A DNA stretch of 64,000 nucleotides, taken from positions 1 through 64,000 of IMG/VR virus record IMGVR_UViG_3300031965_000022; one strand, 5' to 3'. The notes beneath the pieces were generated by a model. It was not told the DNA's origin, did no database searches, and was given only the letters and a program-made list of their open reading frames with translations. The translations under genes were made by a program, and so were the position numbers. How positions within the stretch are numbered: the first letter of the stretch is position 1; every line of letters starts with the position of its first letter. Positions 17,359-59,778 of the stretch are shown here, in pieces. This DNA comes from a virus.

Positions 17359-17435
17359 GCCCCGCTAGCTCCAAATGATAGAGCGGGGGTTTTGTAAACC
17401 CTAGGTTCCTGGTTTGAATCCAGGGCGGGGCTCCA
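17359..17435 (+). tRNA. tRNA-Thr (anticodon UGU), CCA encoded
   Basis: hand-folded cloverleaf: acceptor GCCCCGC/GCGGGGC, D stem GCTC/GAGC, anticodon stem GGGGT/ACCCT, loop TTTGTAA, T stem CCTGG/CCAGG, discriminator T plus CCA; D loop lacks GG and T loop is TTTGAAT. Confidence 0.75.
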
Positions 17436-51023: not shown

Positions 51024-53669
51024 TCAGATGCCCCGAAGACCATCCGGGTTGTCCGGCGACCACTCCGCCAAGTTCCGTCCCACCTTGCCCTCCGCGCCGA
51101 TGCTGAGGCCGCCCAGTTGAGGCCACGCTTGGGTGAAGCCTTGTTGCAGGACCGCCACGGCGTCCGGCACCTGTGCGTCCGGCACCTCCGCCGCAATCTC
51201 GTCGTGGATGATGAGCCGCAGCAAAGCCACCAACCAGGGGTGATGCTCTGCGACCCACAGCAGCACCTCTGTCTGGATGCCCGAGGCTGTGCCCTGGGGC
51301 TTGAAGGCGATGCACCGCTTGGCATCGTCGCCTAGCCGCCACTTCCCATACTTCTTGTCATAGGTGAAGACGTTGTAAAACTCATGCCAATAACCCACAG
51401 GAGTCTTTAACACATGCTCCTTATGCGCAAGTGTCAGCGTGGCATTCTGCCAACGTACTACGTCCTTGCCGGGGTCGGTGTTGAAGTACAAGTCCTGAAG
51501 GTCCTTCGCTTCCTTTTCGTTGCGGAAGTGCTCAGGATATTCCTCAAATATGCGCCCCGGCGTACCCTTGTAGTTTGAAAGGTGGACGACACGTTTTATC
51601 ATCTCCCTCTCAACCGGAAATGCCTTCTTGATGGCCTTGCACCGGGCGCGGAGTTCCTCATCCGGCAGATCAAGGGGAATTGGTTGCCCCACCTTCACAG
51701 AAGTAACCCAGTCATGGACGCCCATCTTGGCGAGACGGATGTACCGCGCCGATCCCGCAAAGTAACCCACCAGGACGGCCTCAATGGCTGAGGAGTCAAA
51801 GGCTACAAATTGGTGTCCTGGGGCAGCAACGATCATCCGCCGGAACTGTTGGGCCAAATCTGACCGCTTCGGAATGTTCTGCGAGTTGACCTGATAACTA
51901 TTCTTACGCCATGTACTGGGGTTGAAGCCGTAGTGGGTCCAGATGCGGATGCAGGTCTTGGGGCCATCGGGGGACTCATGGGCCTCCTCGGGGCCGCCCC
52001 AAATGTAGGTGGTCAACATCTTGTTCGACTCTCGACAGTCGAGGAGGGTGCGGAACGCCGGGTGTTTGTGCACCAACTTCTTCAGATGCTTGGCCTCGGT
52101 GGTCGCTTTTTGCTCCCGATGGTTCATGGGCACTGGCAACCTCAGCGCCTTGATAAGCGCCACTACCTGCTGCGACGAGTGGGGGTTAAAGGGCTTCAGC
52201 CACCCCATGTGCCCATCTTGCTCTACAAGGTGGACATGGCTCAACAGGGTATCACGGATTACCGGGGGTAACTCCTTGGCCTTGGAGCCCAAGACACCAA
52301 GCGGAGGCACTGCCCCAGCCTTGGGCGGCTTCTTGTATCCATTCTTGGGGTGGAGGTTGCGAGCCTGAGCAGGCACCATGCTCTGAAGGGCATCCACATC
52401 GGCCACATACCGCGCCTCCACCTTCTCCCGGAACCGATCCTGTTCAGCCTTGTCGATAAGAAATCCAGGCCGCGTCATCTGCACCAAAATCTCATCCGTC
52501 TCTACACAATGCCGCCAGAAGGCTTCCCACCTGCCCTCGGCCCGCAAGCGCTCCTCGGTGTAGCGGCGGATGGCGTTTTGGATAACGTGATCCATTCCGT
52601 TGTAGTAGGCTGGGGACTCCGATGAAAGCTGTTTCCACGGTGGCCCGTTGTGGACCAGTGGCGCAACGAAGCCCAGCGCCTTTGGCAGGTCGCTCTTGTA
52701 GAAGTGCCACATCCACATCCCAGAGGCCCATCGTCGTGCCTTGAGCCCCGCCTTGGTCAGCCGCACAGAGTCGAAGTGGCGGTTGGTCCATTCCCAGCAG
52801 GTCGTGGCCCGACCCATCACCTCTGCAAGGATGTCGATGTACGGCCACTCATAGGGGAAACTGACCGCTACCCCCGGCTCCAGCGCAAACCCAGCGCGGA
52901 TGATGTTAAAGCTGCTGTCGCGGGTCTCCCCCGGAAGCTCATCCTCTTCGGCCTCCACATCTAGGTCGATGTCATCCTCATCCAGGTCAGCAGACTCCGG
53001 GGTCTCAATGTCGATGTCCACATCCCCAAGGTCAACGGGGAAGAGGTCAAGGTAGGTTCTGAGGTCGCTCGGTGTGGGGTCAAGGATCAACTGGTACTGT
53101 GACGGCTCATAGGTGCCGTTGGCGATCCGCTGCGCCCGCTTGAGGGCCACAAGGATCATTGGGGAGAGCTTCTGCTTCCCCTGCAACACATAGCTGGGGT
53201 GGAAGGTGGGGACAGCCGGGATGCCCCACACCGACTCATGGACGTATCCTTGAGCCTTCTCGATGCCGCTGATGCCACAGGCTCGGCCCAGAGCCACATT
53301 ACCCATTGGGACGATCACCCGAGGTTTGCGCTCCTCCACAAGTTGGTCGAGGTAGGGGCGGCAGTGCTGAAGGGAGGCATAGGCGTCGGGGGTGCGGTTG
53401 GCGTTGTCGGTCCACCCTAACTTTGGGGGCTTACACCACATGGAGTTAGCGGTGGTGACAGCCCGACGGTCAAGGCCCAGCCACTTCAGCCACTTTCCTT
53501 CATAGAGGTGGCCCGCCGCGCCGCTGAAGTTACGGTTTGCGGCCATCTCATCCCGCCAAGGGCTGTCGCCCAGGAAGAGGATGCCGCTGGAGCCATCCCC
53601 GTCAGCTTGGATGAACCGCTCACCGTGGGGTTGGTTGGGGCAGCCGCCGCAGATGGGGCCGGTTGGCAT
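51024..53669 (-). CDS. family A DNA polymerase fused to N-terminal UDG-like domain and 3'-5' exonuclease domain
   Basis: pol motifs A (FDSSAIEAVL), B (KRVVHLSNYKG), C (IIHDEIA); exo motifs DIET and WTNRHFD; N-terminal family-4-UDG-like GILFLGDSPW ... FHPSYVL. Confidence 0.9.
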   Translation of the reverse strand: MPTGPICGGCPNQPHGERFIQADGDGSSGILFLGDSPWRDEMAANRNFSGAAGHLYEGKWLKWLGLDRRAVTTANSMWCKPPKLGWTDNANRTPDAYASLQHCRPYLDQLVEERKPRVIVPMGNVALGRACGISGIEKAQGYVHESVWGIPAVPTFHPSYVLQGKQKLSPMILVALKRAQRIANGTYEPSQYQLILDPTPSDLRTYLDLFPVDLGDVDIDIETPESADLDEDDIDLDVEAEEDELPGETRDSSFNIIRAGFALEPGVAVSFPYEWPYIDILAEVMGRATTCWEWTNRHFDSVRLTKAGLKARRWASGMWMWHFYKSDLPKALGFVAPLVHNGPPWKQLSSESPAYYNGMDHVIQNAIRRYTEERLRAEGRWEAFWRHCVETDEILVQMTRPGFLIDKAEQDRFREKVEARYVADVDALQSMVPAQARNLHPKNGYKKPPKAGAVPPLGVLGSKAKELPPVIRDTLLSHVHLVEQDGHMGWLKPFNPHSSQQVVALIKALRLPVPMNHREQKATTEAKHLKKLVHKHPAFRTLLDCRESNKMLTTYIWGGPEEAHESPDGPKTCIRIWTHYGFNPSTWRKNSYQVNSQNIPKRSDLAQQFRRMIVAAPGHQFVAFDSSAIEAVLVGYFAGSARYIRLAKMGVHDWVTSVKVGQPIPLDLPDEELRARCKAIKKAFPVEREMIKRVVHLSNYKGTPGRIFEEYPEHFRNEKEAKDLQDLYFNTDPGKDVVRWQNATLTLAHKEHVLKTPVGYWHEFYNVFTYDKKYGKWRLGDDAKRCIAFKPQGTASGIQTEVLLWVAEHHPWLVALLRLIIHDEIAAEVPDAQVPDAVAVLQQGFTQAWPQLGGLSIGAEGKVGRNLAEWSPDNPDGLRGI
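51027..51052 (-). promoter_or_regulatory. phage bipartite motif CAACCC-N14-GCATC (candidate promoter) inside the last codons of the polymerase gene
   Basis: GATGC(51027-51031)-N14-GGGTTG(51046-51051). Confidence 0.6.
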
Positions 53670-53992
53670 CAATACACCTCATACCAAAAACGTATAATTG
53701 GAGGCTCCATATAGACTGCCACAACAGAGCACGGGGCCTCAACCCGCCGGGAAGCCTTTCTTAGTGTCGCCCCAGTCATCACCGCTGTATCTACAACTAG
53801 GACAGGGTGGAGCTTCGCACTCCGCACGCTGCGGCAAGGAACCCACGGTATCTTGAGGAAGTGGGAGGCGTACACTGAGGCTACCGCGCCGCTTCGACCA
53901 GGACCCGTAACGCACTTGAATCGTCCCCGGAGAGGCTGCAAAACCTCATAAAGAGCCTTACGGAACTCCGGCTCGGAGATGATGAGGGACAT
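53669..53992 (-). CDS. mini phosphoribosyltransferase-like protein (107 aa)
   Basis: PRPP-loop-like VLVVDTAVMTGATL and GPGRSGAVAS; translationally coupled to the polymerase gene. Confidence 0.5.
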   Translation of the reverse strand: MSLIISEPEFRKALYEVLQPLRGRFKCVTGPGRSGAVASVYASHFLKIPWVPCRSVRSAKLHPVLVVDTAVMTGATLRKASRRVEAPCSVVAVYMEPPIIRFWYEVY

Positions 53993-58265: not shown

Positions 58266-58901
58266 CTACACATCCATTAAAGCCTCTGAGGATCGCGCCC
58301 CCGGTACAAGGTCCTTCTCAGTCTCATCTATCATACCGCTTGCGGTCATAGACATGGTAAGGCGGCGGATCGCCTTAGTCATCGTCTTGTCAATGGCACG
58401 GGCGAGGCCATCCGCTTGACCCACCCCCCCAATAAAGGTGGAGGCACAGTTGATCTCCTCCCGCCCCGTTTCCAACTCCCGCCCCCGTACCCAAATGGTA
58501 AGCATGTCAGCCGTCCGCTCTACACGGATGGGTTCTCCGGGACCAAAATCAATCATCCCAATACCTCGGCGGGGACCGGGAGGGAGCCTAAGCTGATCGC
58601 CCGCTCCTCGATTCGCATATAGGACCGTGCGCTTCTTTCCTGAGCGGTCAGTAGTCTCGATCACATCGAATGGCTTTGATAAGGGGTCCAACCCCATCAT
58701 CTTGCACCGCCACAAATAATATGCAGTGCGTACCTTTGGCGAGAGTACCGCCAAGTTTCCACCCGTCAGAAGTTCGGCGGCGGAGTCGTCGGGGAGGTCA
58801 TCAACCGCCAACTCTAATTGAGTAGCTAACCGCTCTCGCATAGAAAGGGACTCCCTTTTAACCAGTGTTCCCCCGTGAACAACCTCAGCAATTTGAGCCA
58901 C
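58266..58901 (-). CDS. possible single-strand annealing protein (RecT/Sak-like)
   Basis: YYLWRCKMMGLDPLSKPF and TKAIRRLT segments resemble annealing proteins (weak recall); GTG start behind GAGGAGGA. Confidence 0.45.
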   Translation of the reverse strand: MAQIAEVVHGGTLVKRESLSMRERLATQLELAVDDLPDDSAAELLTGGNLAVLSPKVRTAYYLWRCKMMGLDPLSKPFDVIETTDRSGKKRTVLYANRGAGDQLRLPPGPRRGIGMIDFGPGEPIRVERTADMLTIWVRGRELETGREEINCASTFIGGVGQADGLARAIDKTMTKAIRRLTMSMTASGMIDETEKDLVPGARSSEALMDV

Positions 58902-58923: not shown

Positions 58924-58949
58924 GATGCCCCCAACGCTGCGGGGGTTGC
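58924..58949 (-). promoter_or_regulatory. phage bipartite motif CAACCC-N14-GCATC (candidate promoter)
   Basis: GATGC(58924-58928)-N14-GGGTTG(58943-58948); 22 nt upstream of GTG 58901. Confidence 0.6.
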
Positions 58950-59216
58950 CTAACGCTGTTTCCCAAACGCCTCAATCGCTGCGATATTAACATAAAGATG
59001 CTTCATAGGCAACCGTTGAGCATCCTTATAAGTGGGTGCCGACCACTCTCCTGTCTCATACACAAGGCTCGGGTTCTCCAACTGAACACAGGTTTCATTG
59101 ACCCCTGTGAGAAGCCCGATGTAAATATAGTTGAGGCACAACAAAATGACTTTTTCGTTCAACAATGCCATCAAACCCTCACCTTCAACTTCCTGGATAC
59201 TAACAACCTTTCTCAT
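58950..59216 (-). CDS. hypothetical protein
   Basis: AAGGAG SD; low-G+C island. Confidence 0.55.
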   Translation of the reverse strand: MRKVVSIQEVEGEGLMALLNEKVILLCLNYIYIGLLTGVNETCVQLENPSLVYETGEWSAPTYKDAQRLPMKHLYVNIAAIEAFGKQR

Positions 59217-59240
59217 CTTTGTTCTCCTTTGAAGCTACGA

Positions 59241-59408
59241 TTACCCCGACCGCGACCGCGACCCCGACCCCGGCCCCGACCACGACCACGACCGCGACCG
59301 CGACCGCGACCACGACCCCGACCCCGACCACGACCGCGACCACGACCGCGACCACGACCACGACCCCGACCGCGACCACGACCACTTCTGCCTCTTTCCT
59401 CTACGCAT
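59241..59408 (-). CDS. 55-aa basic leader plus (Ser-Xaa)23 repeat peptide, Xaa = Trp/Arg/Gly
   Basis: ATG 59408 six nt after AGGGGG and 10 nt after the upstream TAA; MRRGKRQK then WSWSRSGSWSWSRSWSRSWSGSGSWSRSRSRSWSWSGPGSGSRSRSG; followed by the SD of the next gene. Confidence 0.45.
   Translation of the reverse strand: MRRGKRQKWSWSRSGSWSWSRSWSRSWSGSGSWSRSRSRSWSWSGPGSGSRSRSG
59244..59384. repeat. hexanucleotide tandem repeat (plus CCNCGA; minus TCG-NGG), ~23.5 units
   Basis: read directly; only one position of the hexamer varies (N = T/C/G on the minus strand), plus one T-to-C change. Confidence 0.95.
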
Positions 59409-59418
59409 CGCTACCCCC

Positions 59419-59778
59419 TTAACGCAACCCCTCATCTGTGGAGGGAGGTGTAGGCTCTGGCATCTTAAGGGCGCGGATTTTCCCAGCAAGTAACAACCGA
59501 TAAGAGTTCCCTTGGGGATTATCGGTATCACCAACGAACTTCGCCGCCGCCTCAATCGCGGCCTCCCAGGTCTCACGGCGGGCTTGAGCTTCGCGTACAA
59601 CCCAACCACTGTCAAAGGCATTCGTGACCTTCGCCTTCCAAGTTTCGTCACGTTCTTCGATGAGTTGCTGCCGCTTGTCGAGCAGTGAACGTAGCCATAC
59701 GCGGCAGCGGTTGGACACTGTGCAATCATTGTCCAGAGCCGCCTCGATCTTCCGCACCATCTCTTCAGTGACTTTCAT
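59419..59778 (-). CDS. hypothetical protein
   Basis: ATGA overlap with upstream stop. Confidence 0.6.
   Translation of the reverse strand: MKVTEEMVRKIEAALDNDCTVSNRCRVWLRSLLDKRQQLIEERDETWKAKVTNAFDSGWVVREAQARRETWEAAIEAAAKFVGDTDNPQGNSYRLLLAGKIRALKMPEPTPPSTDEGLR

Follow-up and report, generated by a model that had tools for sequence, protein, structure and literature searches.

A probable hexanucleotide-repeat gene for a serine-(tryptophan/arginine/glycine) peptide, and its predicted Sm-like neighbour, in a tailed phage

The stretch of phage DNA considered here (positions 1 to 64,000 of the IMG/VR record IMGVR_UViG_3300031965_000022, referred to as the window, 64,000 nucleotides (nt) in length) carries on its minus strand a tandem array of hexanucleotides that, judged from the sequences of its relatives, is very probably the body of a real gene, an open reading frame (ORF) encoding a peptide in which serine alternates with a residue X that is tryptophan, arginine or glycine. 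Hundreds of viral contigs carry an ORF of this class, as do metagenome-assembled genomes (MAGs) whose assignments span many bacterial phyla. The ORF is accompanied by a gene for a small protein with a predicted Sm-like fold, and the two products are likely to form a functional pair. The best explanation overall, in which a translated (Ser-X)n gene belongs to a family, forms a module with the Sm-like gene and would act jointly with its product on RNA, is held with moderate confidence.

The array was detected by Tandem Repeats Finder at 59243-59385 with a period of 6, 23.8 copies, 88% matches and a score of 174, and was the sole long array within the 64 kb. An earlier sequence-only reading of this DNA had described about 23.5 tandem TCG-NGG hexamers with N restricted to T, C or G, and this was borne out, the sequence consisting of TGG followed by 23 units (59381-59244) with the stop codon TAA (59243-59241) directly after the last. 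In order along the minus strand there are the TAA of the gene at 59419-59778, GGGGG, TAGCG, an ATG (59408-59406) that lies 10 nt past that TAA, a short leader (codons CGT, AGA, GGA, AAG, AGG, CAG and AAG after the ATG), the TGG, the units and the terminal TAA. The residue counts given for the core by the same reading (22 Ser, 9 Trp, 8 Arg and 7 Gly) match exactly, with 1 Pro besides, and are specified by TCG x22, TGG x9, CGG x8, GGG x7 and CCG x1. The whole peptide has 9 Trp, 11 Arg, 2 Lys and no acidic residues, with a net charge of +13 and a pI of 12. No Ser codon is rarer in this phage than TCG (12.5%), and the exclusive use of TCG, CGG and GGG has a probability of ~1e-28 under the phage's own codon usage, so that the codon pattern lies far beyond chance. 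The window phage was assembled from three samples. The array is identical in two of them, at 23 units, and the contig of the third (Logan SRR9008719, L005) stops inside the array, which occupies its end (1-62). Many other array contigs also end within arrays (matches at positions 2-60), through either breakage of short-read assemblies or variation of unit number in the population.

From the window alone the choice of reading frame was open. The variable base is the first of its codon in the Ser-X frame, the second in a Val-rich frame and the synonymous third in the (Gly-Arg)n and antisense (Pro-Arg)n frames. A scan of IMG/VR DNA with the pattern (TCGNGG)x8 gave at least 120 contig stretches with arrays of 8-41 units, and 89 distinct arrays were scored for a stop no more than 4 codons after the array and for an ATG no more than 25 codons upstream with no stop between. 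In the Ser-X frame a stop was present in 74, an ATG in 70 and both in 60, compared with 5, 14 and 1 in the Arg-Gly frame and 9, 10 and 3 in the X-Val frame. Most arrays have an ATG and a short conserved leader in the Ser-X frame with a stop right behind the array, the in-frame leaders being of the form MNxAxLRxG[YF][DE] or M.xSKQK[YW]R. GenBank MW202573.1 already annotates the Ser-X frame (UOF78858.1), and some family members are present in GenBank as hypothetical proteins. Internal register changes were seen at three loci (L052, L214 and L221), where one ORF reads Ser-X, then Val-rich, then Gly-Arg; these are either real indels of 1-2 nt or assembly errors, and one of the loci (L214) also includes a run of N.

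Codon usage was counted in a second, partner-anchored sample of 106 arrays, for which the partner protein served as bait, blind to the repeat DNA. Serine is specified by TCG (782), TCT (414), AGC (276), TCA (90) and AGT (28), each array being near-uniform for a single Ser codon. The X residues are Gly (650), Arg (425) and Trp (414) with ~7% others, and their codons are nearly always NGG (GGG 616, TGG 414, CGG 211, AGG 204). The array of the window conforms to this pattern, with NGG alone at even positions and one dominant Ser codon. Among the arrays found by DNA pattern, C is nearly absent from the variable base wherever A is frequent there, which fits the use of AGG and CGG as alternative Arg codons. 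Serine is thus conserved as an amino acid across both the TCN and AGY codon boxes and the Gly-Arg, Val-rich and antisense frames are not, on which ground dual coding, alternative frames and structures that depend on an exact hexamer were rejected. The sequence-only reading had inferred a cationic peptide with its own Shine-Dalgarno sequence and ATG, embedded like a real cistron, and the ATG, leader, stop and varied Ser codons seen across the family speak for it. Its further statement that no synonymous variation exists holds within the array of the window and fails across the family, where the Ser codon varies freely.

Family members consist of a short leader (~6-15 amino acids (aa)) followed by (Ser-[Trp/Arg/Gly])n, and are 30-100 aa in total. 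Position 4 of the unit is fully variable, and at each of the other five, the synonymous third base of the Ser codon included, only 2-4% of units depart from the consensus of their array, from which it would seem that arrays are young and are homogenised by the gain and loss of units. Such gain and loss by slippage would leave one Ser codon in each array, yet different codons in different phages. The persistence of a mixture of Ser-Trp, Ser-Arg and Ser-Gly, which drift would not yield, suggests selection for a mixed composition or against perfectly uniform arrays. Recent slippage and selection on the peptide had both been offered for the window array, and both find support, the former in the near-uniform Ser codon of each array and the latter in the retention of Ser and of the W/R/G set across phages; the two explanations are compatible. 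Where flanks are near-identical, the arrays between them can differ by 15 units, always in whole units, and so keep the frame; this passes the check on length variants proposed in the sequence-only reading, although a 6-nt unit makes the outcome automatic. Repeat ORFs are often tandemly duplicated, in 2 to ~8 copies (L018, L080, L092, L111, L128, L212 and L215), with the same leader and a different array in each copy; ~8 copies are present in a Patescibacteria MAG (L215).

The sequence-only reading overlooked both the size of this family and the partner gene, which in the window begins 24 nt past the stop of the repeat ORF on the same strand. Two types of partner were recognised. Type 1 proteins have the terminus W.H.LP..QK* and a stop codon that overlaps the ATG of the peptide (ATGA), and type 2 proteins, to which that of the window belongs, have the terminus AIE[SA]FG; profile comparison identifies the two as homologous (hhalign, 94%, E 1e-7). 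With the partner as bait 175 relatives were retrieved from IMG/VR, the best 80 being inspected by reading the listing, and an (S-X)n ORF was found beside the partner in ~74 of these 80 loci. Most often it lies on the downstream side at a distance of 30-90 nt; a few loci, the window among them, have it upstream. In the reverse direction a partner was found within 900 nt on the same strand in 79 of the 87 array loci with enough flank. The class of leader separates cleanly with the type of partner, and the basic leader and type-2 partner of the window match. No conserved third gene was found beside the module across loci. Clustered at 50% identity, the type-2 family accounts for 553 clusters in a set of 1.84 billion representative proteins; its named members are all called hypothetical and a Pfam domain was found in none.

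The AlphaFold 2 (AF2) model of the partner, built from a 47-sequence alignment, has a pLDDT (predicted local distance difference test score) of 89.7 and a pTM (predicted template modelling score) of 0.79, with a short helix and strands. Nearly all of its top 50 Foldseek matches in the PDB are Sm or LSm chains, with target-normalised template modelling scores mostly of 0.6-0.8, and the model agrees with the N-terminal helix and strongly bent five-stranded antiparallel sheet that characterise the Sm fold. Among the matches in the BFVD library of viral structures are DUF6948 proteins and entries named 'Sm-like domain' and 'RNA binding protein'; a sequence search of the PDB with the partner gave nothing relevant. 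The partner has a charge of -2 and the peptide one of +13, and complementarity of charge between peptide and partner was set aside, being only a weak trend. Two tandem Sm-like domains are present in three homologues (P0093, P0096 and P0147; 186-218 aa), and partner homologues in Nitrospinaceae MAGs (L223-L230, including a 3.4-Mb contig) are mostly without a clear repeat ORF. A GC hairpin (CCCCC-GCAGCGTT-GGGGG, 58928-58945, minus strand) stands after the partner's stop and before the Shine-Dalgarno sequence of a 211-aa gene; it has no U-tract and was not reported by a terminator scan.

A sister module extends the pattern. In cultured phages the gene for DUF6948 (PF22253) is followed, and occasionally preceded, by a different hexanucleotide-repeat ORF, as in Ralstonia phage NK-7, Pectobacterium phage Koroua, Iodobacter phage PhiPLPE and Vibrio phage IKEMa6-1, and in IMG/VR an adjacent (Gly-[Ser/Tyr/Asp/Asn])n ORF was found in 78 of 80 DUF6948 loci (the best 80 of at least 569). 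DUF6948-like proteins are related to type-1 partners in profile comparison (hhalign, 80%, E 1.4e-5), and their match to type 2 is not significant. No Pfam match to DUF6948 was found for the window's partner at E <= 1, so that its relation to DUF6948 would run only through type-1 partners and the predicted fold. At one locus (L099) an (S-[WRG])n ORF neighbours a true DUF6948 protein (E 1e-32). The repeat is basic (W/R) in the branch of the window and acidic (Y/D) in that of DUF6948, where the peptides have charges of -7 to -15. The general pattern would thus be one of a small Sm-like phage protein, as predicted, with a dipeptide-repeat protein of aromatic, charged and small residues. Annotation of such ORFs is frequently at fault: the array of the window is called as a 61-aa Val/Ala/Gly ORF, the Gly-repeat ORF beside the DUF6948 gene of Chlorobiaceae phage CV-1-33 is annotated in the wrong frame ('MAMAMA...'), that of NK-7 is a 'fibroin heavy chain-like protein' and that of PhiPLPE is unannotated.

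It is proposed that the peptide is a Trp-rich polycation, intrinsically disordered, that would work with the Sm-like protein on nucleic acid, most likely RNA, much as the Arg/Gly-rich tail of an Sm protein does, but in trans and from a chain of its own. Its action would fall early in infection, by RNA binding, annealing or condensation or in the takeover of host RNA metabolism, and the array would gain and lose units by slippage under selection that holds Ser at odd positions and a mixture of W, R and G at even positions. An RNA-directed mechanism is put forward tentatively, with indirect support from the predicted Sm-like fold of the obligate neighbour. A role in host takeover or anti-defence also fits, since the module lies in accessory early or replication regions and is dispensable. 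More speculative still is a superfamily-wide module in which a ring-forming Sm-like protein and a disordered dipeptide-repeat protein of rapidly changing length would together build or disrupt RNA-protein assemblies. If this were true the module would be a viral, split-gene counterpart of the eukaryotic Sm and LSm4 proteins with low-complexity tails, and might be a condensate scaffold, or else a device for takeover or anti-defence that targets the RNA metabolism of the host.

A number of caveats must be set against this explanation. The case for translation is one of sequence comparison. The Sm-like assignment comes from predicted structure with modest Foldseek E-values (~2e-3), and the partner has no Sm1 or Sm2 motif and no Pfam LSM or Hfq match. 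Binding of the peptide to its partner, formation of a ring and binding of RNA are conjectural, and the apparent disorder of the peptide (no predicted secondary structure, pLDDT 62) comes from an AF2 prediction on a single sequence. No fusion of the Sm-like domain with the repeat was found among 242 partner homologues, and the order in the window, with the repeat ORF first, is a minority arrangement shared with two other loci (L203 and L204). The closest relative (L006/L007; ENA ERZ27250609, JGI 3300031237), with 83% identity in the 211-aa protein encoded at 58266-58901, has entirely different genes upstream and carries neither the repeat ORF nor the gene for the Sm-like protein. The module is therefore dispensable, and it occupies a mosaic, exchangeable region. 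Selection on the peptide does not wholly account for the strict restriction to NGG, with Gly almost never any other GGN codon and Arg almost never any other CGN codon, a restriction that leaves room for a mutational or nucleic-acid component; frequent interconversion of the NGG codons by single changes at N is the best guess for its cause.

Among the alternatives the one that survives best, unlikely as it is, holds that the product is a precursor similar to those of ribosomally synthesised and post-translationally modified peptides (RiPPs), a modified peptide, or a decoy or anti-defence substrate, with the leader as a recognition element and a core that would be modified or cleaved or would saturate an enzyme or sensor of the host; an example would be Trp flanked by Gly or Ser, as in the GW hooks that bind Argonaute. 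A conserved short leader ahead of a hypervariable, repetitive core is in keeping with this, as is the location of the module close to integrases, repressors and replication genes, in the variable accessory regions where anti-defence genes are often located. No modifying enzyme or other third gene is conserved beside the module, however, searches of PADLOC and NCBIfam were without result, and the Trp-binding pockets of eukaryotic Argonautes are not known in prokaryotic ones.

Rather less probable is a membrane-active, antimicrobial-like or lysis peptide, such as a spanin-replacing disruptor or a toxin. The many Trp, Arg and Lys residues, the absence of acidic ones and the high pI recall (RW)n and indolicidin-type peptides, which are membrane-active, but half of the residues are Ser and ~13% Gly, and the sequence has no amphipathic or hydrophobic segment and no signal peptide. 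Neither does the setting agree, since the neighbours are replication and early genes and not a lysis cassette, the obligate partner is a predicted soluble Sm-like protein, and the sister peptides are acidic and as such would not be expected to be membrane-lytic.

It is very improbable that the array is a nucleic-acid element (a G-quadruplex, slipped hairpin, recombination or contingency locus, or iteron array) in which the ORF is incidental. Five of the six unit positions are invariant in the window, synonymous sites included, GG recurs every 6 nt throughout the family, many contigs break at arrays, and the RNA can form a long G-U hairpin with a minimum free energy of -83 kcal/mol, where shuffled sequences give -73.4 +/- 3.7 kcal/mol (z = -2.6). 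The centroid fold has no structure, however, an Rfam search was empty, and the mean G4Hunter score of 1.13 is ordinary in this GC-rich window. The maximum score of the array is 1.92 and the 99.9th percentile of the window 1.96; most G runs are GG, with two-tetrad potential only. Serine also survives codon changes, even from the TCN to the AGY box, that destroy the register of the hairpin, and ATG, leader and immediate stop are conserved in one frame only. The constraint at the nucleic-acid level that the sequence-only reading had considered is therefore unsupported family-wide, the G-U hairpin and the Gly-Arg frame both vanishing in arrays of the AGC and TCA types. Hairpin and G-quadruplex were accordingly rejected as selected features, the former being weak and ambiguous in register and neither being exceptional or conserved.

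That the real product is another frame (the Val-rich ORF, a +1 frameshifted (Gly-Arg)n or an antisense (Pro-Arg)n) has next to no probability: automatic gene callers chose the Val/Ala/Gly-rich 61-aa ORF (GTG 59385 to 59200) in ENA and JGI contigs, all variation in the window is synonymous in the Gly-Arg (GGT CGN) and antisense Pro-Arg (CCN CGA) frames, and the Gly-Arg frame terminates at a TGA that overlaps the partner's ATG (59213-59215), but that frame has no start codon downstream of the TAG at 59413-59411, a start with a nearby stop is all but confined to the Ser-X frame, as counted above, and where Ser is AGC, TCT or TCA the Gly-Arg frame reads Ala-Gly or Leu-Gly and stops arise in the antisense one. 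The overlap (ATGA) of the Gly-Arg TGA with the partner's ATG was judged coincidental because that frame is not conserved across the family. Dual coding with the +1 or antisense frame, which would explain the five fixed positions, was discarded, those frames being unconserved and lacking starts and nearby stops. A diversity-generating retroelement was likewise set aside, there being one array in 64 kb and few A at its variable base; no search for a reverse transcriptase was made.

The window derives from a tailed phage with a large terminase, an SU10-type portal, a family-A polymerase, an RNA ligase and a PD-(D/E)XK nuclease, and the repeat ORF is surrounded by replication and early genes (PolA, RNA ligase, nuclease). 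The family-A DNA polymerase (51024-53672, minus strand) has an N-terminal domain of the uracil-DNA-glycosylase superfamily (Pfam UDG, 3e-15), and a single tRNA gene, tRNA-Thr(TGT) (17359-17435, plus strand), lies amid the structural genes. Close relatives for a comparison of synteny were sought by megablast against phages, which gave none, and by two scans of IMG/VR with flanking proteins, which returned none. The gene upstream of the repeat ORF had no matches in Pfam, PHROGs, NCBIfam or PADLOC. The features of the module are collected in Table 1.

Table 1. Features in and around the repeat gene, with other repeat ORFs that are badly annotated
Feature	Position	Strand	Description
Repeat small ORF, 55 aa	59241..59408	minus	MRRGKRQK + W + (S-X)23, X = W/R/G, then TAA; very probable gene
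Hexanucleotide array	59244..59384	minus	TGG + (TCG-NGG)x23, N = T/C/G; one unit CCGGGG
Basic leader MRRGKRQK	59385..59408	minus	Basic class (..KQK[YW]-like), accompanies type-2 predicted Sm-like partners
Shine-Dalgarno-like AGGGGG	59414..59419	minus	ATG 5 nt further on; shares its first base with the end of the upstream TAA
Upstream gene, 119 aa	59419..59778	minus	Context only; not conserved with the module
Partner gene, 88 aa, type 2, pI 5.3	58950..59216	minus	Predicted Sm-like; alignments, AF2, Foldseek, linkage counts
Partner Shine-Dalgarno AAGGAG	59224..59229	minus	7 nt ahead of ATG 59216
Badly annotated repeat ORF, window	59200-59385	minus	
Badly annotated repeat ORF, L001	1995-2180		
Badly annotated repeat ORF, L237	1480-1725		
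Badly annotated repeat ORF, L233	1200-1403		
Badly annotated repeat ORF, L234	1475-1888		

Searches of Pfam, PHROGs, NCBIfam, PADLOC and Rfam gave nothing for the peptide or the window's partner beyond a weak match of the peptide to the NCBIfam entry ClfA (E 0.41), which reflects only the shared hexanucleotide-encoded dipeptide repeat. A protein search with the peptide gave 369 candidates that share short words, none of which passed HMMER, the sequence being of low complexity. The sequence-only reading knew of no described phage function for such a peptide, and full-text literature searches, with subscription-only papers outside their reach, likewise found no published description of the peptide family or the module. 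The module was rated as new in kind, the function assigned to it being conjectural. If the peptide is made, it represents a widespread class of phage protein for which no description was found and whose ORFs automatic annotation often misses, misframes or mislabels. The module would join an ancient RNA-binding fold (Sm, as predicted) to an extreme low-complexity polypeptide, an arrangement familiar otherwise from eukaryotic ribonucleoprotein (RNP) biology, and would offer a natural system for the evolution of disordered sticker-and-spacer sequences, in which length and the order of W, R and G change fast and composition is held. With the sister module present in cultured Pectobacterium, Ralstonia, Iodobacter and Vibrio phages the question is directly testable.

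Several known systems resemble the module in part. One is that of DUF6948, in which a small Sm-like phage protein also stands beside a dipeptide-repeat ORF built of hexanucleotides, the repeat being acidic and Tyr-rich whereas that of the window is basic and Trp-rich. The eukaryotic Sm and LSm proteins (SmD1 with its (GR)n, SmD3, SmB and LSm4 with its RGG) likewise combine an Sm fold with a disordered low-complexity Arg/Gly-rich polypeptide, and such tails assist RNP assembly and granule formation; the phage peptide, in contrast, is the product of a separate viral gene with its own ATG, is half Ser and Trp-rich and has no sequence homology to the tails, and the fold of its partner is a predicted one. 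SR-protein RS domains and RG/RGG motifs, which bind RNA and drive condensates, are also alternating Arg-Ser or Arg-Gly sequences of low complexity, whereas the window peptide is a free-standing chain of 55 aa with no RNA recognition motif, ~16% Trp and no kinase or methyltransferase context. Indolicidin, tritrpticin and synthetic (RW)n peptides share its cationic, Trp-rich character; unlike them it is 50% Ser, has no export signal, lies in a cytoplasmic gene context and has an acidic sister family. The Ser-Asp repeats of the staphylococcal Sdr and Clf proteins and the poly-GR and poly-PR of C9orf72 are similarly dipeptide repeats from 6-nt repeats with slippage-driven changes of length. The former, however, are stalks inside large surface adhesins, and the latter arise by non-AUG translation in several frames, whereas the window repeat would be read in a single AUG-started frame. 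In phage T4, small early proteins with a predicted LSm-like fold have been described (GoF, MotB.1 and Frd.2), and a GoF mutant stabilises an mRNA (PMC12152347); these proteins are unrelated in sequence to the window's partner, and the abstract of that study mentions no repeat-peptide partner such as that which accompanies the predicted Sm-like proteins of the phages considered here.

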